Shown piece by piece: positions 6,676 to 31,906 of a stretch of DNA of 45,509 nt. A model generated the notes under the pieces. That model saw nothing but the letters and a program-made list of their open reading frames with translations, was not told where the DNA came from and ran no database searches. The stretch's first letter is position 1, and every line of letters begins with the position of its first letter. Source of the stretch: a virus; IMG/VR virus record IMGVR_UViG_3300045988_016812; one strand, given 5' to 3'. The position numbers and the translations under genes are program-made.

Positions 6676-6754
6676 TTTTACCTCTTTTCTTTCATAAAAG
6701 TTGACAGCCCGGAAGAATATACTTCCGGGTTGTTGCACCGGTGCAACTCTGGTA

Positions 6755-7222
6755 TCAATCGTGATCTTCCGGAATCGTTACCCCGGCATGAATCAGTTTC
6801 TCCGTCACCGCCAGTCCTCGGATCAGAAACTCCGGCACATTATATCCACACTCCACTAAGTTTTCTAAGATGCTCCGGATTTCATTTACAAGCAACGAGG
6901 TCAATGTAAACCAGCCCAGTAATACCAGAAATCCCAGATCAATTCCTAAAAGATCTTTTCCAAGATGAATAAACAATGCCGGAATCAAAAATGCGACGGC
7001 AATGATGATCCAGTAGCCTACTTTCTTCGCCGCTCCTTTCAATCCCGCCTTGCTGCTTTCTTTTCCCAGTTTTCTCGACTTATACCATCCAGTAAGCCAG
7101 TCCAGAATATTGCAGAGCAAATAGCCCGCAAAAACGTACCAGTAGGTTCCGAAAATTAATGTTAAAATCATCACTACTGAGCCTGCCACAGCATTGTAGC
7201 GATCAATGAAGGTTTTTGTCAT
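6755..7222 (-). CDS. Holin (phage_holin_4_1 / LL-H-like family)
   Basis: Multiple TM helices, motif LCNILDWLTGWYKS...S.AGLKGAAKKVGYW; sits two genes upstream of the endolysin (DUF2829 copy B lies between); ATG 7222 preferred over GTG 7231. Confidence 0.75.
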   Translation of the reverse strand: MTKTFIDRYNAVAGSVVMILTLIFGTYWYVFAGYLLCNILDWLTGWYKSRKLGKESSKAGLKGAAKKVGYWIIIAVAFLIPALFIHLGKDLLGIDLGFLVLLGWFTLTSLLVNEIRSILENLVECGYNVPEFLIRGLAVTEKLIHAGVTIPEDHD

Positions 7223-7323
7223 GATTATCACTCTCTTTCTCTAATTTTATAAATTTTCATCTTTTTGTCGCTGTTTCTGGAGATTTGTATGGCATAATGC
7301 AATATCATTCATGATTTTCTCCT

Positions 7324-8589: not shown

Positions 8590-9099
8590 TCAGTCTGCGA
8601 ATGTCCAATCCTCTGCCAGCATGTCCGCCTGTGATGCAAGCCATCCCATCTGCACCCCACTTGTGCCGATAAACGCAATGGCCTTGTTTCCGATGGCATC
8701 GTGATCACAGTTCACAATCTCTCCATCAGTCGATTTATACGAGATTGCCGTGGCCAGCTGAATATACTGTTTCTTTCCGTTCCAGCCTTTTCTGGCAACC
8801 TTAAGTCCACGTTTTAAGTATCTGATCGCATCTGAGAAAGAAAATGTTGCAATTCCACCCAGCACCGGGCAATTATGCTCGTCTGCAATCTCCCATTCAT
8901 CTGATGCCACGTTAAGCAGCGTGTATTCTACTCTCTGCGTATCGCGGATGTCGAGAAGCTCGCCATCATCAGCGTCCTCCTTTCGGCACTGCATCATTAC
9001 AGTTCCCTTTCTCGGATCCCAGTACCAGTAACCTCCCCATCCCGGGAGTTTTACTTTTTCTCCTTTTTTCATTAGTTTCAAAGCTTCTTTAAAATTCAT
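8590..9099 (-). CDS. Tandem DUF2829-like protein (Tad2-like family), copy A, 169 aa
   Basis: MNFKEALKLMKKGEKVKLPGW...DEWEIAD then FSFSDAIRYLKRGLKVARKGWNGK...GWLASQADMLAEDWTFAD. Confidence 0.6.
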   Translation of the reverse strand: MNFKEALKLMKKGEKVKLPGWGGYWYWDPRKGTVMMQCRKEDADDGELLDIRDTQRVEYTLLNVASDEWEIADEHNCPVLGGIATFSFSDAIRYLKRGLKVARKGWNGKKQYIQLATAISYKSTDGEIVNCDHDAIGNKAIAFIGTSGVQMGWLASQADMLAEDWTFAD

Positions 9100-19108: not shown

Positions 19109-19501
19109 CTATCGTCTCCGTCTGTTGGCTCTATTCCCAGCTCTTTCCATCCTGGTTACGCGTTTCATGGTTTTATCTTGTCGGTCAGCCATGTCAAGAA
19201 ATCTTTGTGTAGCCTCGCGTTCCCTCTTGTAATCATTTTCGTCAGATCGTCTCTCGGAAGATGATACCTCGCGCACTGCTGCTCCGTTCTTCTCCGCTCT
19301 GTCCCGGAATTCCTTCGCGCTCATATTTAATGGTGTAGGTTCTGGACTCCCACCGATGCCACGCTGATAATAATTTTCTCCGGCGTTACTCGTGAAGTAG
19401 TACCGGGTTGTTTCGCCGTCCTTCGCTGTTACATCTAATCCAGTGTACCCAGATCCACTACTTTTCGCAGATATTCCACTTTTGCCACCTCTACCACCCA
19501 T
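19109..19501 (-). CDS. Basic Gly/Arg-rich protein, 130 aa, unknown function
   Basis: MGGRGGKSGISAK... start overlaps stop of the DUF4417-like gene by 11 nt; C-terminus ...RAGNRANRRRR. Confidence 0.5.
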   Translation of the reverse strand: MGGRGGKSGISAKSSGSGYTGLDVTAKDGETTRYYFTSNAGENYYQRGIGGSPEPTPLNMSAKEFRDRAEKNGAAVREVSSSERRSDENDYKREREATQRFLDMADRQDKTMKRVTRMERAGNRANRRRR

Positions 19502-20135
19502 TACATTTCACCTCGTTGAATTTATCCGTAAACTGCTTGATTCTCACGATATTTCCCTTACATTCTTCCGGAACTTTTCCATAGAAAATAATGCTTTCTG
19601 GGTGCAGACGCTCGATCATGGCGTCATAGCCGGATAAGAATAGACGTTTTTTGCCCAAACTGTTCATACATCCGACTGAGGAGATTGCGACAGTCCCCCC
19701 CTCCGGCTCTCCATCAAAGCACCACTCATAGGAATCTGGTGTGCTCCACGAGATCGTGGGGATCACGCGGCAACCGTATTCCTGTAAATAAGCGCCGATC
19801 CAGTGCTTTCGAAAGTGATTGTATATCTGGATCGCCTTTGGAAAGTCCGTATATGTGCTGAAATCTGGCGTGAGCACATACCGGAACCGGCTCAGCTTGT
19901 CGGTGTATCGATCCACATTTCTCCACAAGGCATCGAACTGGTAGTCATCCAGAAAGAAATGCACGCCCTTTTGATCCTCATGTGTGACTTTTCCTCTCGC
20001 ATAATTGAATCCGATGAACTCGCACTCCCCTTCAAATGTTTCCGGGTATAGCTGTGGTATGCCATATTCTCCAACGCCGTTAAAAAGGCGGCGGTTTAAG
20101 TTTTCGTATGCCATACTATTTGATTTATCGGACAT
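19491..20135 (-). CDS. DUF4417-like protein, 214 aa
   Basis: GVHFFLDDYQFDALW...VLTPDFSTYTDFPKAIQIYNHFRKHWIGAYLQEYGCRVIPTISW matches my memory of DUF4417; AAGGAA RBS. Confidence 0.45.
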   Translation of the reverse strand: MSDKSNSMAYENLNRRLFNGVGEYGIPQLYPETFEGECEFIGFNYARGKVTHEDQKGVHFFLDDYQFDALWRNVDRYTDKLSRFRYVLTPDFSTYTDFPKAIQIYNHFRKHWIGAYLQEYGCRVIPTISWSTPDSYEWCFDGEPEGGTVAISSVGCMNSLGKKRLFLSGYDAMIERLHPESIIFYGKVPEECKGNIVRIKQFTDKFNEVKCNGW

Positions 20136-20138
20136 AAG

Positions 20139-20465
20139 TTATTCCTTACGGATGTCTGTCTTGCTCATTCTCTTCCACAATTCCGTGAGCTTTTCCCAGC
20201 CATACATAGCCACAAACGCAACGATGAACCCCGCCATAATCGCCGCGAGGATCATATACCATAATATTTCCATGTGAATATACTGCATGTATGCCACAAA
20301 AGCCGCCACGGTAATTCCGATGGAGAGAATAAAGACAAGCGCATCGGTCGGGAGCTTCGCAAGGAACCCGACACCCTTAAATACCTGAGTGATGACGGAC
20401 ACGCAGAACGCGAGAGCGCCGATCACTGCAATAAGCACTGTCATGTTTGAAAGTAATGTTTCCAT
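20139..20465 (-). CDS. Multi-pass membrane protein, 108 aa (holin-like topology)
   Basis: GAGGAG RBS; three hydrophobic helices then charged tail WKRMSKTDIRKE. Confidence 0.5.
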   Translation of the reverse strand: METLLSNMTVLIAVIGALAFCVSVITQVFKGVGFLAKLPTDALVFILSIGITVAAFVAYMQYIHMEILWYMILAAIMAGFIVAFVAMYGWEKLTELWKRMSKTDIRKE

Positions 20466-21284: not shown

Positions 21285-22460
21285 TTAGCCTCTGGTCTTG
21301 ATCTGCGCGATCGGGATCGCTTTGATCGGGAAATACTTCTTTGTGGAAGTCGAATTATTATTCGCAAGCTCCCAGTTTGTTCCTGTCTCAAGCTGCGTGT
21401 TTGTCGGGGAGATAAAGGACGGCTGTTTGAAGCTGATGCCATACGGAGAGAAAATCTTTCTCTGGCGGGAATATAAGGTGTCCTCGCCGCCGTTGGTCTT
21501 CGCGTCTCTATCCATCTCATACGGGACTTTTACGCCGCAGTTTGTGTACTCGATCGCACCAGCGCCGAGAACGTATGTGGTGTATACAGTTCCAGCCGGA
21601 AGGAGTTTGACATAATCACCTTCGTTCGCGTCCGGAATGTCTGTAGTTACGCTTGCTTTTGCGACCTCACCCGCTCCGGTGCCTGCGGTCGTAACTTTGA
21701 GCGCTCCCGGGTCTGTCTGAGATGCTTTGACGTATTTCGCCTCCGCCTCCGCTGTCGGCATGTTGTCGTCAATGAGGACGGTTCTTCCGTTTAAGGTTGC
21801 GAGGGTAAGGTCTCTCTCGATTCCGTCTCCGTCTGTATACTTCATGTATGCGAGGAGCTTAAGATTCTCGAGATCTGTCGCAATCTTGGAGTGCATGATC
21901 GCAAGGCTGAATTTCGCCTTATTGTCTCCGAGAGCCTTCTGGATGGCGTTGTTAAGGGTGGTCTCCGCGAATCCGCTGTTTGTCGGGTCGAGGGACGCGT
22001 CATAGGTGTGCCCGTTCACGAACTTAAGGTTCTCAGCTCCCGTCATGGAGAAGACGCCTTTCAGCGTTGCAAGAAGCGTTTCCTGATCCACATCATCCCA
22101 ATACTCTGCGACTTCCTGCGCAGCCGGGAGGAAGTCCTCGCCTGTGATGTCTGTAGAGAAGTCTTTCTCTGTCCATCCATGAGCACGGCCAACAACGATT
22201 CTACCGTGTGTGTACGTCTCTCTGGAATCTGCTGTGATGTTGGTTGAGCCGTCATAGTTGTCCGGTGTACCGCCGATTCTCGCCTTGATCGGAACCGTGA
22301 TATAGTTGCCGCCTGTCTGATCCGGCAACATAGCCGCATACTGGGACTTCTCCACAATCGCGCCGGACTTTAACAGTGCATTTCTGTTGAGGTTCGGGAC
22401 GGTGTCCACATATGTGCCAAATACTTCGCCATTAAAATTCTTAAGGTCGAATAATGCCAT
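21285..22460 (-). CDS. Major capsid protein, 391 aa
   Basis: Follows scaffold gene; ATG 22460 (MALFDLKNF...) preceded by AAAGGA; size and position. Confidence 0.8.
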   Translation of the reverse strand: MALFDLKNFNGEVFGTYVDTVPNLNRNALLKSGAIVEKSQYAAMLPDQTGGNYITVPIKARIGGTPDNYDGSTNITADSRETYTHGRIVVGRAHGWTEKDFSTDITGEDFLPAAQEVAEYWDDVDQETLLATLKGVFSMTGAENLKFVNGHTYDASLDPTNSGFAETTLNNAIQKALGDNKAKFSLAIMHSKIATDLENLKLLAYMKYTDGDGIERDLTLATLNGRTVLIDDNMPTAEAEAKYVKASQTDPGALKVTTAGTGAGEVAKASVTTDIPDANEGDYVKLLPAGTVYTTYVLGAGAIEYTNCGVKVPYEMDRDAKTNGGEDTLYSRQRKIFSPYGISFKQPSFISPTNTQLETGTNWELANNNSTSTKKYFPIKAIPIAQIKTRG

Positions 22461-22540
22461 AAAAAAATCCTTTCTACCCATAACTGTTAAAAGGTGTGTG
22501 GGTTAGCGACAGCACTCAGAATGTGCCGCCGGTCGTTCGT
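22461..22540 (-). promoter_or_regulatory. Conserved structured leader, copy 2 (upstream of major capsid gene)
   Basis: Aligns with 17560-17632; hairpins CGGCAC-ATTCTGA-GTGCTG and ACCCA...TGGGT. Confidence 0.5.
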
Positions 22541-23182
22541 TTACATATACTGTTTGATGTCAAGATCCGGATTCTCGTTCTTCATCTTCATCAGCTCGGA
22601 CATCGTGTATTTCGGTGCGTTGTTCGGGTTGCTCACCGGTTTGGTGAAGCGCGCCGCGTTCTGTTTTGCCCGTTCCTGCTGCCTGTCAACGAAAATCCCG
22701 GTCTTCTGGGTTCCGTCCTCTCCGGTGGTCATCGCTTTGAAGATGTCGCCGATAGACTTTCCCCGTGCGGAATCTTTTCCCAGTTCTTCCACGAGAGCGT
22801 TGCGATAATGATCTTCTGTGATGTCGTTCAAAAACTCATACATCTTGTTCCCCTTATCATCCGTGGAAGACAAGAAATCATTCACAGTCTTTTCAACTTC
22901 GATTTTCCGTGCGTCATCCGCACGCGCTTTTTTCTCATCATTAAGCTGAGTGGTGAGAGTGGCAATCTGTATTTTCAGATCATACACGTCAATGTCTTTA
23001 AATCCGTCCAGTTTGCTCTTGACATCATCCAGTGAAGTCTTATACTCATCTCTTTTTGTCACTACTTTGTCGTAATCTGATTTTGTGCGATAATTCTCGT
23101 CCATTTTCTTTTTCAGATCACTTTTTTTGTCTTCCGGAACTTCGATTTCAAGTTCCTGTAAGATCTGTTCATAGTTCTGCAT
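22541..23182 (-). CDS. Scaffold protein (phage GP20-like)
   Basis: Highly charged coiled-coil 213-aa protein immediately upstream of the capsid gene; TAGGAGG RBS. Confidence 0.7.
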   Translation of the reverse strand: MQNYEQILQELEIEVPEDKKSDLKKKMDENYRTKSDYDKVVTKRDEYKTSLDDVKSKLDGFKDIDVYDLKIQIATLTTQLNDEKKARADDARKIEVEKTVNDFLSSTDDKGNKMYEFLNDITEDHYRNALVEELGKDSARGKSIGDIFKAMTTGEDGTQKTGIFVDRQQERAKQNAARFTKPVSNPNNAPKYTMSELMKMKNENPDLDIKQYM

Positions 23183-23262
23183 GTAATTATCCTCCTAAAC
23201 GTCAATTTTAAACCGCACGTCTGCGGTAATGGATTAAGCCGGATGAACCTCCGGCGGGGTAA

Positions 23263-23336
23263 TGGACCATCAGGGATTCGAACCCCGAACCGTCCGGTTA
23301 TGAGCCGGATGCCCTTGCCGATTGGGCGAATGGTCC
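23263..23336 (-). tRNA. tRNA with CAU anticodon (elongator Met or Ile2 type); CCA not encoded
   Basis: GGACCAT-TC-GCCC-AATCGGCAA-GGGC-A-TCCGG-CTCATAA-CCGGA-CGGT-TCGGGG?TTCGAAT-CCCTG-ATGGTCC-A folds as a cloverleaf; G1:C72 and no GGG/CCC anticodon stem, so not initiator-like. Confidence 0.85.
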
Positions 23337-23675
23337 TTGCGTCCCTGCCGAGAAGATGACAGGGATTAATATATTGATAAGAAAAGGAGTCCCCGCCCCG
23401 TTGCTGGGCGGAAGTGGAGAGTGCCGGCAGCGAACCGGCAATATTCTGTGCAACTCTCCGTAACCGGCGATGCCGGTTAGCAAGTAACTTTCTCGTGCTA
23501 TGCTCTGCACTATGCCCCGGGGGGTGGGGCAGTCGCACGCCGGAAATTGCATCCGCTTTTCAACCTCCCCGATCATGCCGGGTTTCTCTTAAGGGCGTGC
23601 GTGCCGTACGAATAAAGGAGGTATGGCAACAAAAAGCATGGTCCCGTATAGGAGTGGGAATCCACAATGTCCCCA
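23337..23675 (-). ncRNA. Candidate structured non-coding leader RNA (~340 nt) ending at the tRNA
   Basis: GC-rich, no RBS-led ORF, dense perfect hairpins (23461-23479, 23415-23459, 23342-23365); lies between a promoter-like motif and the tRNA. Confidence 0.35.
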
Positions 23676-23680
23676 CGCTT

Positions 23681-23722
23681 TCATTTTATCACATCTCAAA
23701 ATTTATTTTACCCCCACATTTT
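23681..23722 (-). promoter_or_regulatory. Promoter-like motif copy A: AAAATGTGGGGG-N19-TGATAAAATGA
   Basis: Shared with 32451-32493; extended -10-like TGATAAAAT; begins right after stop of 23726..24148. Confidence 0.4.
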
Positions 23723-23725
23723 AGG

Positions 23726-24148
23726 CTAATCTCCGAGCTTACGGATATATCTCTGTATCTCCTGCCGCTCATCCGTAAAATCGCTGTCCATGACCATCGA
23801 AGAGAGCATGTCGTACACCTCCACCATCAGCCGCCCAACGCACTCCATGAGCTTGTCGCGGTGTGCCTGATCGCCGTTCTGTTTGTACGCCTGTTTCGCG
23901 GCAATGTAGCGATCATACAGGGAATCGATGTTGTGATCGTATCTCCCATTGGAGTATTTCTTGATCACATCCTCCGCCACGTCAGCAACACGGCTTTCTT
24001 CCCACTCTTTTCCGTCCATCTTTTCCAGATAGCAGATCGCCGCCGTGAGCTTATAGATCACATCCAGCCGCGATGCCGTCAGGTTGTTCACAGCTTCCTT
24101 TGCTTCCAGATTCAGCTGATCTTTAAGCTTATTTATCAGCTCTTTCAT
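23726..24148 (-). CDS. All-alpha hypothetical protein, 140 aa
   Basis: GGGAGGAG RBS; overlaps upstream gene by 20 nt. Confidence 0.55.
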   Translation of the reverse strand: MKELINKLKDQLNLEAKEAVNNLTASRLDVIYKLTAAICYLEKMDGKEWEESRVADVAEDVIKKYSNGRYDHNIDSLYDRYIAAKQAYKQNGDQAHRDKLMECVGRLMVEVYDMLSSMVMDSDFTDERQEIQRYIRKLGD

Positions 24149-24737
24149 GCTTCACTCCTCCCTTCATTTTCTTTTTGTATTTATCGTGGAGTAGCTTCTG
24201 ACTCTCCATGATGTATATCGGATCATATCCGGCGGTAATAAGGTCTGTTATGATCCGTTCCAGCCGCTCAAGTTCGTTATCCACATCACACACGAGGTTA
24301 TCCACAAATATAGCATCTGCAACATTTCCCATGCTTCTGAGAGCTGTCGCATACTTCTGATACACGTCCTTTGTGGACTGCTCCCATGCGAGGTGTGCAG
24401 AGAATCCATCTTCCACCGCTTTCTGTTTGGTGGACTTTCCTACACTCATGCGGTTTGCAGACTGCCACGCTTCTGGGATCATCTGCACGTTCCCCTCGAA
24501 GGTGTCACGGATCAGTTTCCCGTGGTGATTGATATAGTAATGTGCAGTTTTTCGGCGTTCCTCACTCTCAGCAAAATACTGATACAGATGGAACCGCTTA
24601 TAACCGCTCAATCCGAGAAAATCGAAATAATCCGACATCTGATCATGAATCATGATCGCTGCGATCTGCCGCGCGTTGATCTCAGAGAAAACATCTTCCG
24701 CGCTTTTTACATCCATCTTGCTTCGGAAGGCAATCAT
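24129..24737 (-). CDS. Ferritin-fold (four-helix-bundle) protein with degenerate di-iron site, 202 aa
   Basis: EINARQIAAIMIHDQMSDYFDFLGLSGYKRFHLYQYFAESEERRKTAHYYINHHGKLI parallels ferritin helices A-B; EExxH is EERRK here; ATG 24737 with GGAGGTG RBS. Confidence 0.5.
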   Translation of the reverse strand: MIAFRSKMDVKSAEDVFSEINARQIAAIMIHDQMSDYFDFLGLSGYKRFHLYQYFAESEERRKTAHYYINHHGKLIRDTFEGNVQMIPEAWQSANRMSVGKSTKQKAVEDGFSAHLAWEQSTKDVYQKYATALRSMGNVADAIFVDNLVCDVDNELERLERIITDLITAGYDPIYIMESQKLLHDKYKKKMKGGVKHERADK

Positions 24738-24749
24738 CGTGATCACCTC

Positions 24750-25178
24750 CTACGCCAGTTTCTTGATGATGATGTTCGCATCCTTCACGAGTACCTCGCC
24801 CGCGGAGATGTTCCCGATCGACACCGTGAGGGATGAGCCAGCCGGGACCGGTATCAGTGTGGACGCTCCGACATTCTGGTATGTGTTCGCCGTTACAACT
24901 GTGTAATCCATCTCTGTTCCGCCGATTGCCTCGCCATTGAGCTCAATCACAAGGGCCGTTGCTCCTGCTGCCGCCGCGGTCACGTTTCCGTTAAAGTCCA
25001 CCTCTACCGCCATCGGGAGGTTTGTGCGGTTTGTGATCGTGAAAAGCCCGCTCCCCTTGACATGGTTCAGCCACCCGCTGGAGCATCCGCATCTTCTGGA
25101 TTTCACACGTGTGTCGTTAAAGATAACGTTCTGGTTTGCTGTCACTGTCTGTTCTGCCTTTGCTATAACATTGAGCAT
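24750..25178 (-). CDS. Beta-rich 142-aa protein, tentatively TNF/C1q-like jelly roll (BclA C-terminal / DUF3992-like)
   Basis: NQNVIFNDTRV...GLFTITN...VEVDFNGNV...ALVIELNGEAI...LTVSIGNISAGEVLVKDANIIIKKLA resembles exosporium BclA-C/ExsF-type domains from memory. Confidence 0.4.
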   Translation of the reverse strand: MLNVIAKAEQTVTANQNVIFNDTRVKSRRCGCSSGWLNHVKGSGLFTITNRTNLPMAVEVDFNGNVTAAAAGATALVIELNGEAIGGTEMDYTVVTANTYQNVGASTLIPVPAGSSLTVSIGNISAGEVLVKDANIIIKKLA

Positions 25179-25192
25179 AGTATTTCTCCTTT

Positions 25193-25224
25193 CAAAAAAT
25201 AAGGAGTCGAATCCGACTCCTTAT
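25193..25224 (-). terminator. Rho-independent terminator inside the accessory island
   Basis: ATAAGGAGTCG / CGACTCCTTAT perfect 11-bp stem, 4-nt loop, followed on the minus strand by TTTTTT. Confidence 0.65.
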
Positions 25225-25236
25225 CGATGCGCAAGA

Positions 25237-25449
25237 CTACTTTGTAGCTATGGATTCTTCCAACATGCTTATGATTTTGTTTTGATTCTCGATAATCTTA
25301 TCCAGATACTTCCGATCCTGTTCCTGGAGATGCTTCGCAATGTCGGCGTTGCTTGCCTGCGACAAATCGCTTTCGTAATTCATCACCTGCAAGAATACGC
25401 CGAACAGGTTTAGGGCATCCAGGGCAGTCAGTTCATTCGGATTTCTCAC
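25237..25449 (-). CDS. Hypothetical helical protein (~70 aa; start uncertain)
   Basis: GTG 25449 overlaps upstream stop (GTGA); ...SNADIAKHLQEQDRKYLDKIIENQNKIISMLEE. Confidence 0.4.
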   Translation of the reverse strand: MRNPNELTALDALNLFGVFLQVMNYESDLSQASNADIAKHLQEQDRKYLDKIIENQNKIISMLEESIATK

Positions 25450-26132
25450 AGTACATTCCCGCCGTTTCCGCAGCATCCGCCGAAGCCAGCCATATTATAC
25501 GCAAAGTACGGGGAGCACGTAAGATAAGCCGGTGTCGGTGTCGGTCTTACCGCATCAACGATGTTCTTGGTCTGGTTGACCTGGGAAATCTGCCAGTAAG
25601 CCGTCTGTAAGTCACGGTCACGATCTGCGAGCTTGTCGCGGAGTCCCTGAATGGTGTTCTCCTGCATGAGCTGGCGTGTCTCCTGTCCGTCTGCAAGGAC
25701 GGTTTCCTTGATGTCACAGCAGCACTGTGCAAGCTGTGCCTGCATGTTCTGCGCCATCAGTGCCGCATCATACCGGCTCTGTAAGATCTCTTTCTGTGTT
25801 TCGCAGCAACACTGCTGAGACTGAGCACCTAACTGCTGCATTCCGAGCTGCGTTGTATATCTGCTCTCAAGTACATCTCTCTGGGTCTGACATGCTGTGT
25901 TGGATACGTTCTGATTTGTGTTGAAGATGTCGCGCTTCACAAACTCATCCGAAATGAAATTGTCCTGCACGCCGGTTTCAACACCACCGCGGTTCCATCC
26001 GCCCATCATCGGGAAGAGGAACGCAATCAGAATAATCCAGATCCACCAGCCGCCACCGCCCCACATATCGTTGCATGTGTCGTTTCTGGTTACTGCTGCC
26101 ACATCCGCAGCGGATAACATTCCCTCATTCAT
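25446..26132 (-). CDS. Membrane protein with Gln-rich internal repeats and CCC triplets, 228 aa
   Basis: AAGGAG RBS before MNEGML; TM segment GGGGWWIWIILIAFLFPMMGGW; three ~30-aa repeats (C..TQRDVLESRY / CCCETQKEILQSRY / CCCDIKETVLADG); C-terminus GFGGCCGNGGNVL. Confidence 0.6.
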   Translation of the reverse strand: MNEGMLSAADVAAVTRNDTCNDMWGGGGWWIWIILIAFLFPMMGGWNRGGVETGVQDNFISDEFVKRDIFNTNQNVSNTACQTQRDVLESRYTTQLGMQQLGAQSQQCCCETQKEILQSRYDAALMAQNMQAQLAQCCCDIKETVLADGQETRQLMQENTIQGLRDKLADRDRDLQTAYWQISQVNQTKNIVDAVRPTPTPAYLTCSPYFAYNMAGFGGCCGNGGNVL

Positions 26133-26222
26133 GTGGTTTTCTCCTTGCTTAAGATTTATCATGAGCCGTTGCGCACCCGGCTGTGATAGCGAATTATCGT
26201 TTTGTTGAGGTCAACAAAACCA

Positions 26223-26477
26223 TCATTTCATCATCCCGGCAAATTGTCCGGGATCCATGCCGTTCTGCTGGCACATCTGCTTGAATACCTGTTCCGGGTT
26301 CTTCCCTTTGCACATATCCATCGCTTTCTTGATGTTCGGATTCTGCTGCGCCATTGCATTGATCGCCGCCTGTGGGTTTCCTGTCTGCCGGATCTGGTTC
26401 ACGACACTCATGGCCTGCATCATCGCCGCCATTGGGTTGCTTCCGGATCCGCCCATCATGCTTAATAATGGATTCAT
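26223..26477 (-). CDS. Met/Gln/Asn-Pro-rich small protein, 84 aa
   Basis: AAGGAGGGG RBS; repeated NP..(A/M)..M motifs (GSNPMAAMMQAM, TGNPQAAINAMAQQNPNIKKAM). Confidence 0.5.
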   Translation of the reverse strand: MNPLLSMMGGSGSNPMAAMMQAMSVVNQIRQTGNPQAAINAMAQQNPNIKKAMDMCKGKNPEQVFKQMCQQNGMDPGQFAGMMK

Positions 26478-26890
26478 TCAGTCCCCTCCTTCTTCTCTTC
26501 CTGTCTCTCCCCGAGTTTCACAAGCAGAGCATTAAATTCCTCTCGCGTCACATAATCCCCATTTGAAGCCGCAGGAGCCATTTGCGGGGCTGTTAAGGAT
26601 GATACGGGGATTTCTTTGAACGCGAATGCTTTGAGTGTTGCGCTCCCCATTCCGTCCACGGATTTGACGTAGAACATGGGGCTGTTGTTGTCCATCATCC
26701 ACGCTGTTTGTCCCGGCTGTACGATCTGATTCCTTGCTCCTTCGACTCCAGCTACCTGGATCCAATTCACATTTTGCATCGGCACTGTCTGCCGCAGCTG
26801 TGTTGCCTGTTCCATCTGCTGGATGCGCTGTTGTAATGCCGCCTGATCTGCCATATATCCGCCCATTCCATAAGGAGTATATGCATTCAT
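26474..26890 (-). CDS. Hypothetical protein, 138 aa
   Basis: ATG 26890 after GGAAGGAGGGGAG; first gene after the internal terminator; NWIQVAGVEGARNQIVQPGQTAWMMDNNSPMFYVKSVDG core. Confidence 0.55.
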   Translation of the reverse strand: MNAYTPYGMGGYMADQAALQQRIQQMEQATQLRQTVPMQNVNWIQVAGVEGARNQIVQPGQTAWMMDNNSPMFYVKSVDGMGSATLKAFAFKEIPVSSLTAPQMAPAASNGDYVTREEFNALLVKLGERQEEKKEGTE

Positions 26891-26970
26891 GCGCTCCCCT
26901 CCTTCCTCTGCTTCCATTATGGCATGTGAGAATGGCAGAAAACAGTTCATGATAATACACAAAAAGTATA

Positions 26971-27015
26971 AAAAAAGAGCAAAAAGAAAAGAGCTTGCGC
27001 ATTTACAAGCTCTTT
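26971..27015 (-). terminator. Rho-independent terminator after the sigma-like regulator gene
   Basis: AAAGAGCTTG / CAAGCTCTTT 10-bp stem, then TCTTTTTGCTCTTTTTTT on the minus strand. Confidence 0.6.
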
Positions 27016-27033
27016 CTGTACATTTATTTGATT

Positions 27034-27237
27034 TTATTGGCATAATCGTATGATCTTATCGTTCACTCGGCGGCTGATCCGCTTAGCTGTCGACACGCTG
27101 ATGTTCATTTTCTCCGCACACGTTTCTAATGGTATCCCCTTGCTCCGATACTCAAATAGAGCTCTTTCATCAGCCGTAAAATTGGCAAGCTGCCGGAAAC
27201 GTTCCAGCTCCGGCACTGTGAACTGATAGATTTTCAA
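27034..27237 (-). CDS. Small sigma-70 region-4-like / LuxR-type HTH regulator, 67 aa
   Basis: TTG start with AAGGGGA RBS; DERALFEYRSKGIPLETCAEKMNISVSTAKRISRRVNDKI. Confidence 0.6.
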   Translation of the reverse strand: MKIYQFTVPELERFRQLANFTADERALFEYRSKGIPLETCAEKMNISVSTAKRISRRVNDKIIRLCQ

Positions 27238-27248
27238 GGCAATTCCCC

Positions 27249-27581
27249 TTATTTTTCCGTCAAAGCCTGGATAAGTTCGTCCCTCGTTTTTTTTAAGCCC
27301 TCGATGTTGTTTCCGGTAATCTTGTTCTCGATGAGATTGAACATACTTCTCATCAAAAGCTGTGTGTCTTCCCGGTTCGCGTTGATAGAGGAGTAATCGT
27401 TATTAAGCTTCTCTTTGATGTCTTTGATGTCTGTCTCAATGGCACCTACACGGCTTTCAATGTCCTTCTGCGGCTGTTTCGCTGACTTGTATGCCTTATA
27501 GATCACACTGCAAGCCGCGCCGATGACCGTGATCCCGCTACATATCGACAGGAATTCCTTTATGATTTCAAGCTCTCCCAC
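27249..27581 (-). CDS. N-terminally membrane-anchored coiled-coil protein, 110 aa
   Basis: GTG start abutting Mu F-like stop; TM segment ICSGITVIGAACSVIY then heptad-like region. Confidence 0.5.
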   Translation of the reverse strand: MGELEIIKEFLSICSGITVIGAACSVIYKAYKSAKQPQKDIESRVGAIETDIKDIKEKLNNDYSSINANREDTQLLMRSMFNLIENKITGNNIEGLKKTRDELIQALTEK

Positions 27582-28817
27582 TCATTTATCCTCCGTTGCA
27601 TTTTGATATCTTCGTGCCGCTCCGCGCGCCTTCGCTGCCTGTTCTCTTCCCCATCTGGCAATTCTCAGACGGTCCGCCAGCGGTCGAAGATCGTTGTCAT
27701 CGCAAAACTGATTGTATGCCGCGTTCTGGCGCTGTAAGAGATATGATTTTCTGTCAAGATCCATTTGCAGCGCTGCTTTTGCCTGCGGATCCTTGCAGGA
27801 TTCCACGGCCGTCTGCATCCCGGAGACAATCCGCTTCGTCTTCCGGATCCTGCGCTCAAGCGTTCGCTGGCGCTGCTCAAGCTTTTCTATTCTCTCACTC
27901 TCTTCGGTTTCTATGCCCTTATATGGGTTGTTCTCACCGTCTCCGGACCCGAAGCTGTGGCGGCAATTCCACCCACACAGCCCCTCTCCGCTCCCGTATC
28001 CAGTGACGGAAAACGGTGGAAATCGCTTGTCTTTTCCGGATCTGGAATAGAATTTTCCTTGCCACCACATATGATTTCCGGGGTTCTCTCCGCCGTCTCC
28101 GGTTCTCGCTCCCAGATGTGCCGACACAAGAATAATATCCCATTCCATCTCCTTCATGCGTTCCAAGCTGATCGCGCCGGTTGCCTGTCCCACACCTGTA
28201 CGTACTGCCCTGGCTGTGGCTGTCTCAATGGTGTCCTTGTGGACTCGCCCGGTCTCCTCGTCCGTGTAGTTGACATATACGCCTCCGGACACTACCTCGT
28301 CAACTGCTTCTCTGACCGCCTGTGTGTACGATACAGCACCACTCGTGACTTTGTGGTAAGCGGTATCACACGAGTTGATAAAAAGCCGCTGCGCCGCGTC
28401 TGCGGTCGTGCGGGTGTAATTGCGCCATTCCCCGAGGGTCGCCTCATAGTTGCGTTGCATCAGTCGGATCAGCTCCGGAGACTCCATGAGTGGGAGTGGG
28501 GAAAGTCCGGCGGCTTCATAGATCTTATCATCCGCCTCTACTGCCTTGATTCCCGCTTCTTCCATCGCTTCCTTGATTTCCTTCTGCTGGAGCTTTGTCC
28601 GCTTCGCGATCTCCGGGATGATCTCCTCCATCAGCGCGCCGGAGTCCTGCATGATTTCAATCTGCCAGCGATCGGCGGAGGTAAAAAGATATTCATCGCC
28701 GCGCCCGATCCGGATCATCATGCGTTCCACGATCTTCCGGAGGATATAGCTGTGAAGGTCTGCGGCAATCTCTTCCGCCCCCTCCGCTATGCGCTGTAAG
28801 TATGCCGGTTCGAGCAT
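27582..28817 (-). CDS. Minor head / head morphogenesis protein (Mu F, SPP1 gp7 family)
   Basis: Follows portal; NPGNHMWWQGKFYS...GWNCRHSF motif region typical of Mu F-like proteins. Confidence 0.8.
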   Translation of the reverse strand: MLEPAYLQRIAEGAEEIAADLHSYILRKIVERMMIRIGRGDEYLFTSADRWQIEIMQDSGALMEEIIPEIAKRTKLQQKEIKEAMEEAGIKAVEADDKIYEAAGLSPLPLMESPELIRLMQRNYEATLGEWRNYTRTTADAAQRLFINSCDTAYHKVTSGAVSYTQAVREAVDEVVSGGVYVNYTDEETGRVHKDTIETATARAVRTGVGQATGAISLERMKEMEWDIILVSAHLGARTGDGGENPGNHMWWQGKFYSRSGKDKRFPPFSVTGYGSGEGLCGWNCRHSFGSGDGENNPYKGIETEESERIEKLEQRQRTLERRIRKTKRIVSGMQTAVESCKDPQAKAALQMDLDRKSYLLQRQNAAYNQFCDDNDLRPLADRLRIARWGREQAAKARGAARRYQNATEDK

Positions 28818-28829
28818 TCCATCACCTCA

Positions 28830-30278
28830 CTATTCCTCCTGGAACAGCCGATTGCCTTCCTCCGGCTGCGCTTCTGCGATCATCGCCTTCGCATCCTCTT
28901 CGCTCATGCCCTCGAACTTCTGGAAGTACATCCACGCCGGGGCCTTGCCCTGAATGACATACTGCCACCAACGGGCGCGATCCTCTTCACGGTTGTATGT
29001 GATGTCTCCGAAATCGTATGTTGTCTCATACTCTCCTGCCGGTGTGATCCCGTAGAGATCCGCGTACACGCTCAGGGCATATAGCGCGCCATCTAAGGCG
29101 CTTTCCAGTTTGTCGCGCACATCTTTAATGAACTGGATTGTGCGCTGATCCTCAGCCTCTACCTGTGTCGCCGTCACCATGCCAGTCTTTTCGTTGAACA
29201 CAAAATAACCGTTGCTGAATCCACACTTGTATCCGATCTGGGAGAGAAGCGCGTTGATTCCGGACAGCCGCACATCCGTGTTGAGCTGAGGATTGATCTC
29301 CGCATAAAACTCTTTTGCGTCATTCCCGAATACATTCTTGACGTATCTCGGGAGCCCCATCTCCTTCCTCTGCGCTTTCATCGCATCAGATGCGCGCCCC
29401 GTAAGCTTCTGCCCGTCCGGCATCAGCAGGCGATCATCCGCGAGGATGATTTTCTGACTGTCCCAGATCTCGCCAGCGTTGCGGCTGTATGCGACATCCA
29501 GATCTTTCAGCTCCTCGAGCGCCTCAGCGAACACCGGCAGCCCCAACGGGATTTCTATGTCCACATTATTCGCCGCTGGCATCCGCAGGAGTCCGAACAT
29601 GGGACCATCTAACCTCTCGCCATTTGCTTTGAGGATCGGCGGTGTATCATCGATCATACCCGCCCATTTCGTTTTCGACAGTGGAATCGGGTCCCCGATA
29701 TCTTCCGCCGCCCGTGACACATACGCGCGATTACTGATATAGTAAGGGTATGTGGTTGTCTCGCCCTCTGTAGTCTCCACAAAGCGATGGTATTCAAGGC
29801 GCGTATAGAATCGATCCTGATCCGTATATGTATCCTTGAAGATGATCCCCTTCACGCCCAAGTTGTCGTACTCCACGAGCAAGATGTCTTTCGGCGTGAA
29901 CAGATCCAGGCTGTCCCCGTTCGGCTTGAGGAAAACAGTTCCGTATGCACATGCGTACTCTGTCCAATCGCGGAGTCGGAAATACACAGCGTCAATCTGC
30001 TTCTGTAGCCATTCCGCTCTTGCGCTGCCCTCGATCGTGATTCCGATCGCCAGTGTTGCAAGCCTCGCCGTCTCGGAACATACCGATTTTGCAAAGTTGA
30101 TTGTGCGGATATCATTCTCCTCACTCAGCCACGGCGGCAGACCTATATAGATGTTCGCGCACTTCTTTATCACGTCTTCCATCGCGGGAGACATGACGGA
30201 TTTTACCTTAAAATCATCTTCGGCTTTCTTCTTAAAAATCATATCGATCCACCTTTTCAGTGTTGATAACAGTCCCAT
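28830..30278 (-). CDS. Portal protein (SPP1 gp6-like)
   Basis: 482 aa directly after terminase (TAATG overlap at 30278); size, position. Confidence 0.8.
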   Translation of the reverse strand: MGLLSTLKRWIDMIFKKKAEDDFKVKSVMSPAMEDVIKKCANIYIGLPPWLSEENDIRTINFAKSVCSETARLATLAIGITIEGSARAEWLQKQIDAVYFRLRDWTEYACAYGTVFLKPNGDSLDLFTPKDILLVEYDNLGVKGIIFKDTYTDQDRFYTRLEYHRFVETTEGETTTYPYYISNRAYVSRAAEDIGDPIPLSKTKWAGMIDDTPPILKANGERLDGPMFGLLRMPAANNVDIEIPLGLPVFAEALEELKDLDVAYSRNAGEIWDSQKIILADDRLLMPDGQKLTGRASDAMKAQRKEMGLPRYVKNVFGNDAKEFYAEINPQLNTDVRLSGINALLSQIGYKCGFSNGYFVFNEKTGMVTATQVEAEDQRTIQFIKDVRDKLESALDGALYALSVYADLYGITPAGEYETTYDFGDITYNREEDRARWWQYVIQGKAPAWMYFQKFEGMSEEDAKAMIAEAQPEEGNRLFQEE

Positions 30279-31906
30279 TATGCGCTGCTTCCTCTTCTCT
30301 TCCACTTGGTTTCCGTTGCGTATCTGGTTGCATCTATGAGATGATTGTTCTTGTCCGGGTATCCGCTGATAATGTTTCCGTCCTTGTCTCGCTCATACTC
30401 ATACTTTTTGAACTCCTCGCAGACGTTCGGGGTGCGGTTCGGATCCATCACAAGCTTCTTCCCCTGTAGCCACTTCATCGAATATTCAACGCTTCCCGGT
30501 CCCTTCTCTGCCCCTCTGGCGGGTAGTCCGGCGTCTCTGTAATCATTCACGGACTTGTTTTCCGCGCTGTCGCATGTAATCACATAGTCCGTGTATCCGC
30601 GCCGCTTGATCTCGTCCGCTGTCCATGCGTTGCTCCGCTTGTTTTCATACATCTCATCCAGAAAATAGATGGTTTCCCGCGCCTCATCATAATGTGAGCG
30701 AACGAATGCGTACTTATCTGGGTACCATCCCCAGTCCACGCCTTGATAGATACGATCCATGTGGCTGATCTCTTCGTCTGTGATGGTCCGTTCCTCAATG
30801 AACTCAAACACATTGCCGCCGTTTCCGTTCGCAACACCCATGTATTCATTCTCGTAGGCGCTTGGATTGACTTCTTTCAGATGTTCCGCGTCATTGATGA
30901 ACTGATCGCCCAGCCAATCCGCTGGAACATCCTTATATGTGCTGTGGACAACAATAGCGCTCGCGTCCTTGAATTCCGCTTCCGTGGTGTACTCATTCGC
31001 CCAGTTATTTTTACTCCTCGGAGGGTTGAAACTCTTAAACTTATATGCCTTGTTTCCTCCTCGAATTGCGGACTGCTGAATATTTCGTACTTCTTCCGGA
31101 CCGGCGAACTGGTCAAGCTCCTCAAACCACACGATTCCGATGTATCCGAATTCTGGCTTGATGGACTTAATCTTGAGTGGATCATCTGCGCCTCTGAAAT
31201 AGATCTTCTGCCCGGTCGGCTTGTATGTGATCTCGAACGGGGATGACTTGAACCGGAATTCTGCGTCAAGTCCCAACTTTGAGATTGCCCACTTGAGCTG
31301 TGCATATACGGAATCTTTTATTGTGTTCCCGACTTTTCGCAGCACAAGCGCGTGCATGTCCGGGTTGTTTTTCAGCAGCTCCAGAATAATGCAGGAAATC
31401 CCGGAGGACTTCGTGGATCCACGTCCGCCGGGCAAAATGTATTCGGTATGGTTTCCACGACGCACGTCACGGATCATCGGGTGGAACACGTCCGCGATGA
31501 TGTCCAGATCCATGTGGTACTCTTGCGCCAGCCGCGCCGCTTCTTCTGCTTTCTTCTCTTCTTCTCTCTTCTCTTTGATGGTGAGCGTTTTCTCGAGATC
31601 TGACATTGCCTTGAGCTGCTCAGAGAATGCCGGAGTGAATCCGAATGAATCCTTGAGCTCTCCACGTGCGATCATAGCGCGTCGCCGCTGGATGTCCGCC
31701 AGAGACATGATGTCCGTGCCGTTCTGCTTGTCCAACTCGGCTTGCTTCTCGGCTATATACGCTGATACATCAGCATTTTTTAACAGTCTGCATCCCTCTG
31801 TCTCTGGCTTCTTATATCCAGCTTTTCTCGCCGCATCGGTTGCGTTCCCACCATTTTTTACGAAATTTTTTGCGAACGCTTCCCGCATTGGCGTAAGTTT
31901 CACCAT
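30278..31906 (-). CDS. Terminase: small-subunit (Terminase_2-like HTH) domain fused in frame to a PBSX-type large subunit, 542 aa
   Basis: N-terminus KLTPMREAFAKNFVKNGGNATDAARKAGYKKPETEGCRLLKNADVSAYI is TerS-like; from ~aa 135 HTEYILPGGRGSTKSS (Walker A) onward is TerL-like; single uninterrupted ORF. Confidence 0.8.
   Translation of the reverse strand: MVKLTPMREAFAKNFVKNGGNATDAARKAGYKKPETEGCRLLKNADVSAYIAEKQAELDKQNGTDIMSLADIQRRRAMIARGELKDSFGFTPAFSEQLKAMSDLEKTLTIKEKREEEKKAEEAARLAQEYHMDLDIIADVFHPMIRDVRRGNHTEYILPGGRGSTKSSGISCIILELLKNNPDMHALVLRKVGNTIKDSVYAQLKWAISKLGLDAEFRFKSSPFEITYKPTGQKIYFRGADDPLKIKSIKPEFGYIGIVWFEELDQFAGPEEVRNIQQSAIRGGNKAYKFKSFNPPRSKNNWANEYTTEAEFKDASAIVVHSTYKDVPADWLGDQFINDAEHLKEVNPSAYENEYMGVANGNGGNVFEFIEERTITDEEISHMDRIYQGVDWGWYPDKYAFVRSHYDEARETIYFLDEMYENKRSNAWTADEIKRRGYTDYVITCDSAENKSVNDYRDAGLPARGAEKGPGSVEYSMKWLQGKKLVMDPNRTPNVCEEFKKYEYERDKDGNIISGYPDKNNHLIDATRYATETKWKRRGSSA

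Follow-up and report, generated by a model that had tools for sequence, protein, structure and literature searches.

A probable mobile accessory cassette inserted between the Mu F-like and scaffold genes of a gut Firmicutes phage lineage

Why do nine genes intervene between the Mu F-like gene and the scaffold gene in the head operon of the virus record IMGVR_UViG_3300045988_016812? The stretch of DNA analysed here, called the window below, comprises 45,509 nucleotides (nt) of this record. Its whole late region is on the minus strand and runs in the order terminase, portal, Mu F-like gene, island of nine open reading frames (ORFs; g1 to g9), non-coding interval, scaffold gene and major capsid gene (Table 1). 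An initial annotation, made from the sequence alone, had regarded the nine same-strand genes as a separately controlled accessory module and not as core morphogenesis genes. Our results agree with this view: a related phage lacks the block, the core of the block occurs in varied genomic positions, and two sequence elements are conserved, a terminator that follows g2 and a promoter-like element ahead of g3. We estimate a probability of about 0.6 that the region is an extended, lineage-specific version of a mobile accessory cassette found widely among Firmicutes phages, and that it has been inserted in the head operon and stands outside head assembly. This reading is preferred because the cassette is absent from a syntenic relative, is portable between phage backbones and positions and has a regulator-like gene of its own, and because it combines conserved control elements with variable add-ons and an insertion hot spot that it has in common with Tad2-like genes.

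The cultured Blautia phage Montmirail is a relative of the phage in the window, with proteins that are 66% (large terminase subunit, TerL), 56% (portal), 57% (Mu F-like), 43% (scaffold) and 27% (capsid) identical to those of the window. In Montmirail the gap between the Mu F-like and scaffold genes is 142 nt and none of g1 to g9 is present. Relative to a Montmirail-type head module, the nine-gene block is an insertion. The same interval was surveyed in 86 viral contigs sampled with a Mu F profile. Seven further loci had a gap of 141-142 nt and no island genes, and two had a gap of 622-759 nt. All remaining contigs with enough sequence had an interval of 3.0-6.7 kb that held some version of the island. 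Because the interval is filled in most sampled contigs and empty in the Montmirail group, it is a cargo slot that is usually occupied in this phage clade. The initial annotation had stated that in this type of head module the scaffold gene normally comes next after the Mu F-like gene. This holds for the Montmirail group, but most members of the wider clade have a version of the cassette there. Genes needed for head assembly should be kept beside the head genes in every relative that shares the head module; the island is missing from the Montmirail group and also from two other related loci, L231 and L248.

For comparison within the family, IMG/VR was scanned with g7 and g5, which gave more than 240 matching stretches each, and 159 loci (L001-L159) were compared. 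All nine genes, placed on one strand by the initial annotation, are intact in about 100 related IMG/VR contigs, and they co-occur in essentially every complete locus of this set. Co-occurrence in other phages had been set beforehand as a check on the module; the nine genes are indeed found together outside this genome and, as described above, they are not head-assembly components conserved in all relatives. The loci differ widely in their head genes, with identities to the window of 31-97% for TerL, 36-99% for portal, 29-92% for scaffold and 24-99% for capsid, and g5 and g7 are the best-conserved members of the family (72-98% identity). Proteins identical in sequence to g1 and g9 are recorded on 413 and 380 contigs, respectively. 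Ratios of nonsynonymous to synonymous substitution rates (dN/dS) of the nine genes are 0.02-0.13, with 0.04-0.06 for g4 and 0.02 for g9, and fall in the same range as those of the terminase, portal and Mu F-like genes. The nine ORFs are real genes under strong purifying selection. Between clades, identities of about 35% for g3 and g7 contrast with 64% for the Mu F-like protein. One locus (L229) keeps the whole island order at very low identity, with g1, g2, two unrecognised ORFs at the g3 and g4 positions, g5, a Cys-rich beta protein, g8 and g9 (assigned by eye), and the architecture therefore appears to be old.

Outside this phage clade the picture changes. Sixty distant loci were collected by a scan of genome collections with a g5 motif and by tblastn against annotated phages, and their ORFs were assigned by iterated profile searches. 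Five genes dominate in these loci: g5 in 59, g3 in 54, g7 in 31, g4 in 29 and g2 in 27. The other members are rare, with g8 in 11 loci and g6 in 10, the scaffold gene in four, and g1, g9, the Mu F-like, portal and capsid genes in three each. The order g2-g3-g4-g5-g7 is constant in the distant copies. On this comparison, the mobile core consists of these five genes, which move as a set between unrelated phage backbones, and the nine-gene unit is specific to the phage lineage of the window. The g6 and g8 genes form an optional, separable sub-module, with g1 and g9 as lineage-specific additions. The g6 and g8 genes occur together in 7 of the 13 distant loci that carry either, are adjacent or overlapping in Clostridium phage CS266P1 and in locus L161, and are one or two ORFs apart in the Clostridium perfringens phages HMD-PC1 and vB_CpeS-17DYC (17DYC). 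Phage CS266P1 carries the pair alone, without the cassette. Other additions recur as well: a DUF7841 protein downstream of the cassette in 16-18 distant loci and a g9-like helical protein with an Arg/Gly/Tyr/Ser-rich middle in 10. In 14 distant loci, and in L229, g7 is replaced by Cys-rich beta proteins of 110-135 amino acids (aa). A relationship of these replacements to S-ENA proteins (alignment A8) was considered and found unsupported, as a profile search of the PDB returned nothing usable.

The distant copies are found in strikingly different surroundings. Among the three genes upstream, lysis genes are the most frequent recognisable families (five Amidase_2 genes, seven holins of four families, Amidase_3, Peptidase_M15 and SLH), followed in frequency by tail genes. 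Downstream lie five tyrosine integrases and two resolvase-type recombinases, host genes (an ABC transporter, a P-type ATPase, riboflavin synthesis, ExbBD and DinB) or, in some copies, early genes (ERF, Gp157 and AAA_24). The end of the lysis module is a classic site of accessory genes in Firmicutes prophages. In Dulem virus 33 the cassette lies between a PGRP-type lysin and the integrase, and in Dulem virus 36 it follows the receptor-binding protein. In the C. perfringens phages HMD-PC1 and 17DYC it is in the early region, after the antirepressor gene and before recombination and thymidylate synthase genes. In a 545-kb Phascolarctobacterium contig and a 205-kb Megasphaera contig it stands at the edge of a prophage beside host genes. 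No head genes were found near the cassette in these cases.

These positions bear directly on the possibility that the cassette encodes virion-associated accessory proteins, i.e. non-essential structural parts. The g7 protein would then be a trimer that decorates the capsid or forms a fibre knob. The g5 protein, with g4 keeping it soluble, would reside inside the head or be ejected and would insert its hydrophobic segment into the target membrane, and the proteins would be loaded alongside the Mu F-like protein. The location between the Mu F-like and scaffold genes across a large clade is what this explanation expects, the absence of signal peptides from g3, g4 and g7 is compatible with assembly in the cytoplasm, and the Cys-rich motifs could cross-link after release. 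However, in most other backbones the core lies outside the structural modules, after the lysin gene, by the integrase or host DNA, or in early regions. Moreover, the cassette has its own helix-turn-helix (HTH) gene, terminator and promoter-like element, its membership varies (an unrelated Cys-rich beta protein can stand in for g7, and g6 and g8 are optional), and the related phage Montmirail makes heads without it. We therefore regard a virion role as unlikely on balance, with a chance that is small but real.

If the region is instead an accessory cassette, as we prefer, how might it be expressed? The initial annotation had described g2 as an HTH protein resembling sigma region 4, and the family searches point the same way at scores below the curated cut-offs. 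The 67-aa protein matched Sigma70_r4 with an E-value of 0.009 (15.9 bits against a cut-off of 24.1) and the sigma-70/ECF (extracytoplasmic function) family TIGR02937 with an E-value of 0.0011 (18.6 against 42.9 bits), as well as phrog_1190, 'RNA polymerase sigma factor' (E 2.8e-6). Some proteins at the g2 position in relatives pass the Pfam cut-off for DUF1492 (26.3 against 21.5 bits). Region 2, which a true sigma factor needs, was not matched in g2; region 4 alone was. One distant copy of the cassette is preceded by a Sigma70_r2 protein (E 7.8e-14), i.e. a fuller sigma factor (alignment A10).

The g2 gene is followed by an intrinsic terminator (T1), and a second hairpin of this type (T2) precedes g7. 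The initial annotation had placed both, near 26971-27015 and 25193-25224, and both were recovered, with folding energies of -16 kcal/mol (z -2.8) for T1 and -17.5 kcal/mol (centroid; z -3.6) for T2. A hairpin with a T-run after g2 is kept in position across the relatives, with differing stem sequences. Downstream of T1, the window has a promoter-like element that reads TATACTTTTTGTGTATTATCAT GAACTG-N21-CATAAT (26970-26916). In a by-eye alignment, the relatives have GATACTTTT-type direct repeats upstream of g3, followed by GA(A/C)CTG, 20-22 nt and an A/T-rich hexamer that usually comes after TGC. The pattern GAACTG-N20-22-HAWAAT occurs once in the 45.5-kb window, with 0.11 occurrences expected. 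Of 124 unique loci, 59 have its relaxed form, GA[AC]CTG-N20-22-[ACT]A[AT]AAT, at a distance of 21-72 nt upstream of the start of the g3 ORF (48-72 nt in 57 of them); elsewhere, this form gave 13 matches in 4.27 Mb. Where 1-2.6 kb of inserted genes separate g2 from g3, the element stays with g3. The terminator hairpin of many relatives is built round the GAACTG box, so that the upstream stop signal and the start signal of the cassette are interlocked. ECF-type region 4 domains recognise -35 boxes that contain GAAC, and we infer that g2 may bind the promoter-like element upstream of g3.

The role of T2 is less clear-cut. The initial annotation had read g7-g9 as an independent third unit that begins after this terminator. 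This reading is the less likely one: T2 ends 16 nt before the start codon of g7 and therefore leaves no room for a promoter, and T2 is present only in some clades of the relatives and missing in whole others. An attenuator or a hairpin that stabilises the mRNA is a better reading of T2 than the border of an independent unit, and g7-g9 are more likely an attenuated continuation of the transcript. A further hairpin between g4 and g5, reported before with a 10-bp stem, is present with a stem of 9 bp.

The stretch between the g2 terminator and the promoter-like element of g3 is an insertion hot spot, with a length of 100 nt to 2.6 kb in the relatives. Its cargo includes Tad2-like genes (E 5.7e-18 and 3.6e-21), DUF1653, DUF4406 and DUF7336 genes and unknown genes. 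In some relatives the g4-g5 or the g2-g3 interval is interrupted by ORFs of about 245 aa on the opposite strand, which look by eye like homing endonucleases with zinc-ribbon and AP2-like motifs. Pfam gave a weak zinc-ribbon match for these ORFs, and one in Dulem virus 33 is annotated as 'endonuclease'.

The company of Tad2-like genes, both in this spacer and in the lysis region of the window, could imply that the cassette itself serves host takeover or counter-defence in the cytoplasm, acting against host functions or immune systems, with the ferritin-like pair handling metals or oxidants and with membrane association being incidental. The early-region site in the C. perfringens phages and the fast divergence of g3 and g7 between clades mentioned above would also suit such a function. 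However, co-location is weak evidence and the sole basis for this idea. None of the proteins had a defence or anti-defence match in PADLOC, Pfam or NCBIfam, and a five-gene architecture with a membrane anchor and a putative trimeric jelly-roll is unlike the known small anti-defence proteins. We consider this explanation highly improbable.

An RNA-gene slot lies at the other end of the island, between g9 and the scaffold gene. This non-coding interval of 543 nt contains a RAGATH-21 RNA, a terminator-like hairpin and a tRNA-Met(CAT). In relatives (L009, L010, L066, L065 and others) the same slot holds RAGATH-21 at 78-81 bits, stronger than in the window, and tRNAs that vary between Met, Tyr, Ser, Asp, Ile, Thr, Ala and Lys; in L065 a GP20-b RNA immediately precedes the scaffold gene. 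ARAGORN reported odd anticodons for some of these tRNAs: ACT for tRNA-Ser in L009 and L050, ATC for tRNA-Asp in L010 and L045, and a two-base 'ca' in L065 and L167. They could be unusual decoders, degenerate genes or tRNA-like elements. Across the slot, identity between relatives falls from about 80-100% in g9 to 61% in the scaffold protein and 27% in the capsid protein. This collapse between g9 and the scaffold gene marks the RNA slot as a recombination boundary with the scaffold and capsid module. Relatives with islands that are 80-100% identical to that of the window carry either of two capsid types that look unrelated (about 84-99% or about 25-28% identity), each with the matching scaffold variant. 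The difference in capsid and scaffold is a clean module swap at the RNA slot.

What the cassette encodes was approached protein by protein. Scans of all nine proteins against Pfam, NCBIfam, PHROGs and PADLOC gave weak matches or families of 'unknown function', and no holin or peptidoglycan hydrolase domain was found in them with Pfam. A holin and an endolysin are encoded elsewhere in the window, and the idea that the cassette is the lysis module was rejected for this reason. A hydropathy of 1.6 is reached by g1 and g5 alone. The other seven proteins have no N-terminus resembling a signal peptide, which places their synthesis, and presumably also their assembly, in the cytoplasm. The g1 protein directly follows the Mu F-like protein in gene order and had been described as a membrane-anchored coiled-coil protein, which fits its Kyte-Doolittle maximum (19-residue window) of 1.92 at residues 10-28 and its coiled-coil-like tail. 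Its family matches are weak (DUF7365, phrog_1009), and by its distribution g1 is a lineage-specific member of the island. Co-variation of g1 with the Mu F-like protein was considered and dropped, since g1 keeps an identity of about 30% whether the Mu F-like protein is 64% or 34% identical.

Among the core proteins, g5 is the hallmark. Most gene callers give it 228-229 aa. Its 11 Cys include two CCC triplets, and its single hydrophobic segment, at residues 37-55, is flanked by Gly and Trp. The g5 alignment (A3) has an invariant CCC-x-T in a Q-rich helical region, a P-x-P-x-P-A-Y motif and a Cys-rich tail. The family counts 819 clusters at 50% identity (E<=1e-3), and no relative was found in the PDB (profile search with A3), Pfam, NCBIfam or PADLOC. 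The g4 protein, with 14 Met and 11 Gln in 84 aa, is encoded directly upstream of g5 in 29 distant loci. It may resemble the Met-rich helical domains that shield hydrophobic segments (STI1/Sgt2 type); Pfam gave no match in support of this likeness. The g3 protein matches phrog_21718 (E 8.5e-19), and its AlphaFold2 model has a core at residues 41-95 with a predicted local distance difference test score (pLDDT) of about 90. Foldseek found no significant match of this model in the PDB (best E 0.24), the SH2/Cbl-like matches on its list being rejected as noise, and a profile search of the PDB with the g3 alignment (A1) gave nothing usable. In locus L215, an ORF of 398 aa has the g3 domain behind an NlpC/P60-like domain of the cell-wall hydrolase type (identified by eye), a fusion that hints at a cell-wall context for g3.

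The g7 protein offers the clearest structural foothold. It had been called jelly-roll-like, and its AlphaFold2 model is indeed an all-beta jelly-roll that starts at residue 2 (pLDDT 86; predicted template modelling score, pTM, 0.80). Foldseek against the PDB gave the C-terminal domain of the F-BclA tip as the best match (E 5.8e-8, template modelling (TM) score 0.75), together with the C-terminal domains of BclA (TM 0.70-0.73) and ExsFA/BxpB (TM 0.72-0.74). All of the top 19 matches are exosporium proteins of Bacillus, and phage knobs and fibre domains, TNF ligands and C1q follow them. A sequence profile of g7 found the F-BclA domain 9h38 at an E-value of 9.6e-5 and BclA at 0.14-0.4. The window protein had no Pfam match at E<=0.1, and PF18573 is precomputed on homologues that are 72-80% identical to it and on a distant one of 132 aa. 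The closest matches in the viral structure library come from gut phage assemblies and are uncharacterised, stand-alone proteins with lengths of 130-145 aa. We had also considered 9h38 as a DUF4183 F-ENA fibre subunit. This was rejected, because the Foldseek description identifies it as the F-BclA tip domain, of BclA-C type, and the idea that g7 is a polymerising F-ENA subunit with an N-terminal hook was therefore dropped. The C-terminal domains of BclA and F-BclA and ExsFA/BxpB belong to the Bacillus exosporium and to PF18573 in the TNF/C1q superfamily (PDB 1WCK, 9H38 and 7R1M; Sleutel et al., 2025, PMC12357932). Like them, g7 is a jelly-roll of this type (TM 0.70-0.75, E about 1e-7; the profile match is weak), but it is a phage-encoded stand-alone domain that has neither a collagen-like GXX stalk nor an exosporium-targeting N-terminus.

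The fold of g7 can be turned in two directions. Firstly, it also matches the central spike knob of phage phi812, a short tail fibre domain of cyanophage A-1(L) and the collagen-tailed C1q-like heads of many viruses, and these matches favour the virion role discussed above. Secondly, the exosporium likeness raises the possibility of a spore-directed lysogenic conversion, in which expression in the mother cell adds an exosporium-like layer to the host spore from a BclA-C-type trimer, Cys-rich cross-linkers and a ferritin-like coat protein, and thereby alters spore adhesion or resistance and the transmission of the prophage. Besides the Bacillus matches of g7, such a role would agree with the lack of signal peptides, as in coat proteins made in the mother cell, with the Cys/Tyr/Gln/Gly-rich low-complexity segments, which in our reading resemble coat and exosporium matrix proteins, and with the fact that many hosts are Clostridia. 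However, the core occurs in the prophages of Phascolarctobacterium and Megasphaera, which are known as non-spore-forming genera, and in C. perfringens phages of the CP13O/CP39O type (HMD-PC1 and 17DYC), which we take to be virulent. By eye, the -10 hexamer has the look of an extended -10 of sigma-A, unlike the promoters of sigma-E or sigma-K. None of the proteins other than g7 shows a sequence link to coat proteins, and g8 matches ferritins and not CotJC-type manganese catalases. The exosporium likeness pointed out by the initial annotation thus stands for g7 at the level of the fold, but a spore-specific role is not the best reading of it, and we judge it very unlikely.

The proposed ferritin fold of g8 was borne out by a profile search of the PDB with alignment A2, which matched ferritins at E-values of 4.2e-5 to 1e-2, with helices A-B as the best stretch. 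At the ligand positions, however, the Glu of helix A is replaced by Arg, Lys or His and the ExxH of helix B by ExxE, whereas the Glu of helices C and D are kept (E122 and E158); H34, E122 and E158 are invariant. The g8 protein thus has no canonical ferroxidase centre, and an altered metal site is possible. Archaeoglobus fulgidus (1S3Q) and Thermotoga maritima (1VLG) ferritins align with g8 over helices A-B (E 4e-5) and weakly over C-D, with the Glu of helices B, C and D kept. Unlike them, g8 has an invariant His at the ferritin Tyr position and carries a GYD motif at its C-terminus, and the small helical protein g6 is its dedicated partner; the likeness is one of sequence. The GTG start of g6 overlaps the stop codon of g5 (GTGA). 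A CotJB/CotJC-like identity of the g6 and g8 pair found no support, for the reason given above for g8.

Taken together, we propose with moderate confidence that the cassette is a g2-dependent, very late unit whose products form a membrane-associated assembly. Transcription from the terminase-portal-Mu F operon would stop at T1. The small HTH protein g2, made at the end of that transcript, would bind the GATACTTTT-type repeats and the GAAC box and activate the g3 promoter, and the cassette would therefore be expressed as its own, very late unit. Read-through into g7-g9 would be reduced by T2. The products may assemble on the cytoplasmic face of the membrane, with g5 as anchor and stalk and g7 as a putative trimeric head. 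Assembly on this face is the most likely arrangement, because g1 and g5 alone have membrane segments and the other seven proteins have no N-terminus resembling a signal peptide. The Met-rich g4 possibly shields the hydrophobic segment of g5, and g3 and g4 may be partners or a chaperone of the assembly. The Cys-rich motifs could bind metal, or cross-link once the cell lyses. The purpose is most likely a function in the infection cycle or to the benefit of the lysogen at the cell envelope and not the construction of capsids; it may for example consist in excluding other phages or in modifying the cell or its debris.

Several points weigh against placing the region among mobile accessory cassettes with such a role. 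The G+C content is 0.49-0.50 over 23-28 kb, equal to that of the flanks, and the island is therefore not a recent foreign insertion. Its constant place in this large clade fits head-internal or decoration proteins too, and TNF/C1q-like jelly-rolls are common in virion fibres and knobs. Both the activator role of g2 and the promoter itself are predicted from sequence, and the 21-nt spacing between GAACTG and the -10 hexamer is not the standard geometry of sigma-A or ECF promoters. The assignment of g5 as a membrane protein is a prediction from hydropathy. PADLOC gave nothing significant for the island proteins, with short helical stretches at a best E-value of 0.003, and hence no support for a defence function. 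The nine proteins are 'hypothetical' in every source, and no experiment or annotation links any of them to a function. The full-text literature, including searches on RAGATH-21, on BclA, prophages and ferritin, on PF18573 and DUF7841 and on the cultured phages, yielded no description of the cassette or its parts in phages.

A more speculative synthesis of the same features can be formulated. The cassette may be a phage-borne construction kit, self-regulated and cytoplasmic, in which low-complexity and Cys-rich proteins, a membrane anchor and a BclA-C-type trimer build a cross-linkable layer or fibre resembling the exosporium, whether on infected cells or their debris, on host spores or round virions. 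We consider this quite unlikely. If true, the kit would be a phage counterpart of the spore surface machinery, spread across hundreds of lineages of gut Firmicutes phages.

How does the proposed accessory cassette compare with known systems? Phage morons and lysogenic-conversion cassettes are familiar from HK97 gp15 within the tail genes, from bor and lom of phage lambda and from toxin genes downstream of the lysin in Firmicutes prophages. Like these, the cassette forms an additional unit within a late operon or at its end, flanked by a terminator and a promoter-like element. It is missing from syntenic relatives, lies at the junction of lysin and integrase genes in many prophages and has one product predicted to be a membrane protein. 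It differs from them in having five to nine genes and not one or two, its own small HTH protein and a base composition equal to the flanks, and in occurring also in C. perfringens phages that are believed to be virulent. The g2 protein recalls the small sigma-region-4-like late activators that have reportedly been described from Firmicutes phages (RinA, ArpU or DUF1492 type), being a short HTH protein whose gene directly precedes the operon that it putatively activates. Those activators precede the terminase gene and control the whole late operon, whereas g2 lies inside the late region and would control the cassette alone; it is also shorter (67 aa) and scores below the curated cut-offs. Finally, Bacillus phage SPP1 has small genes of unknown function, genes 8-10, between gene 7 (Mu F-like) and gene 11 (scaffold). 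These are likewise extra small genes in the same interval of the same type of head module, but they are not known to have their own regulator or terminators or to change position in the genome, and no homology is claimed. An accessory, moron-like unit in a late operon is thus of a familiar kind; the specific five-gene system with a BclA-C-type domain and a CCC protein appears to be undescribed.

Other features of the window are included in Table 1. One of its two Tad2-like genes sits between the holin and endolysin genes. At the lysogeny end, a FuFi-1 RNA scoring 121.9 bits lies near an Mrr_cat-like gene and the integrase gene. Downstream of the capsid gene, in the head-tail connector region, are a DUF4417 protein and a 108-aa hydrophobic protein for which there was no family match.

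Table 1. Features of the window and, at the end, of selected related loci (coordinates of the latter refer to the locus named).
Feature	Position	Strand	Description
FuFi-1 RNA	1870-2031	plus	lysogeny end
Mrr_cat restriction-endonuclease-like gene	2797-3936	plus	lysogeny end
Tyrosine integrase	4145-5224	plus	lysogeny end
Peptidase_M15 endolysin	5434-6153		outside the cassette
Tad2-like gene	6166-6738	minus	Thoeris anti-defence 2, PF11195; E 1.9e-22
Phage_holin_4_1	6755-7231		outside the cassette
Tad2-like gene	8590-9099	minus	Thoeris anti-defence 2, PF11195; E 2.5e-25
DUF4417 protein	19491-20135	minus	E 4.3e-57
108-aa hydrophobic protein	20139-20465	minus	
Major capsid gene	21285-22481	minus	ORF and family matches
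Scaffold gene	22541-23182	minus	phrog_194
Non-coding RNA-gene slot	23183-23725	minus	between g9 and scaffold gene
tRNA-Met(CAT)	23263-23336	minus	in RNA-gene slot
Terminator-like hairpin	23391-23413	minus	in RNA-gene slot
RAGATH-21 RNA	23532-23603	minus	70.9 bits, gathering score 70.3
Nine-ORF island g1-g9	27581 down to 23726	minus	from ORF list
g9	23726-24148	minus	140 aa, helical; lineage-specific island tail; phrog_28802, E 2.8e-7
g8	24129-24746	minus	ferritin-like four-helix bundle; likely ATG start 24737
g7	24750-25178	minus	142 aa; stand-alone BclA-C / TNF-C1q-like jelly-roll; core member
T2	25194-25225	minus	terminator or attenuator; stem 25198-25225, 12 bp and U6
g6	25237-25476	minus	helical protein of about 70-79 aa; about 70 aa from GTG 25449
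g5	25446-26162	minus	hallmark core member; likely ATG start 26132 (228 aa)
Hairpin between g4 and g5	26199-26220	minus	-11.9 kcal/mol, z -3.9, no U tract
g4	26223-26477	minus	84 aa; Met/Gln-rich helical core member
g3	26474-26890	minus	138 aa; PY/Q-rich N-terminus, small beta domain, C-terminal helix with YVTREEF motif
Promoter-like element upstream of g3	26916-26970	minus	TATACTTTT / GTGTATTATC repeats, GAACTG, 21 nt, extended -10 (TGcCATAAT)
T1	26966-27017	minus	intrinsic terminator after g2; stem 26987-27017, 13 bp and U-rich tract
g2	27034-27237	minus	67 aa; sigma-70 region-4-like HTH; candidate cassette regulator
g1	27249-27581	minus	110 aa; N-terminal membrane segment and coiled-coil-like tail
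Phage_min_cap2 / Mu F-like gene	27582-28817	minus	Pfam E 1.3e-73
Portal	28830-30305	minus	ORF and family matches
Terminase large subunit	30278-31906	minus	ORF and family matches
Spacer cargo, L155	3605-4231, 4700-5362		between g2 and g3
Spacer cargo, L154	8046-8525, 8864-9184		between g2 and g3
Spacer cargo, L158	5885-6301		between g2 and g3
Opposite-strand ORF, L001/L007	8182-8919	minus	homing-endonuclease-like by eye
Opposite-strand ORF, L132	9134-9910	minus	homing-endonuclease-like by eye
Opposite-strand ORF, L010	7160-7891	minus	homing-endonuclease-like by eye
Opposite-strand ORF, L162	8559-9110	minus	homing-endonuclease-like by eye
g3-domain fusion ORF, L215	8539-9735	plus	398 aa

The phage lineage of the window is very common in human gut metagenomes. 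An island of nine genes has now been resolved into a five-gene core, a candidate regulator, a candidate operator-promoter and two structural footholds, one BclA-C-like and one ferritin-like. The slot for cargo between the Mu F-like and scaffold genes is useful for genome annotation and for phage engineering. As a conserved, mobile and self-regulated unit, the cassette likely matters for the interplay of phages with their hosts among the gut Clostridia and Negativicutes.

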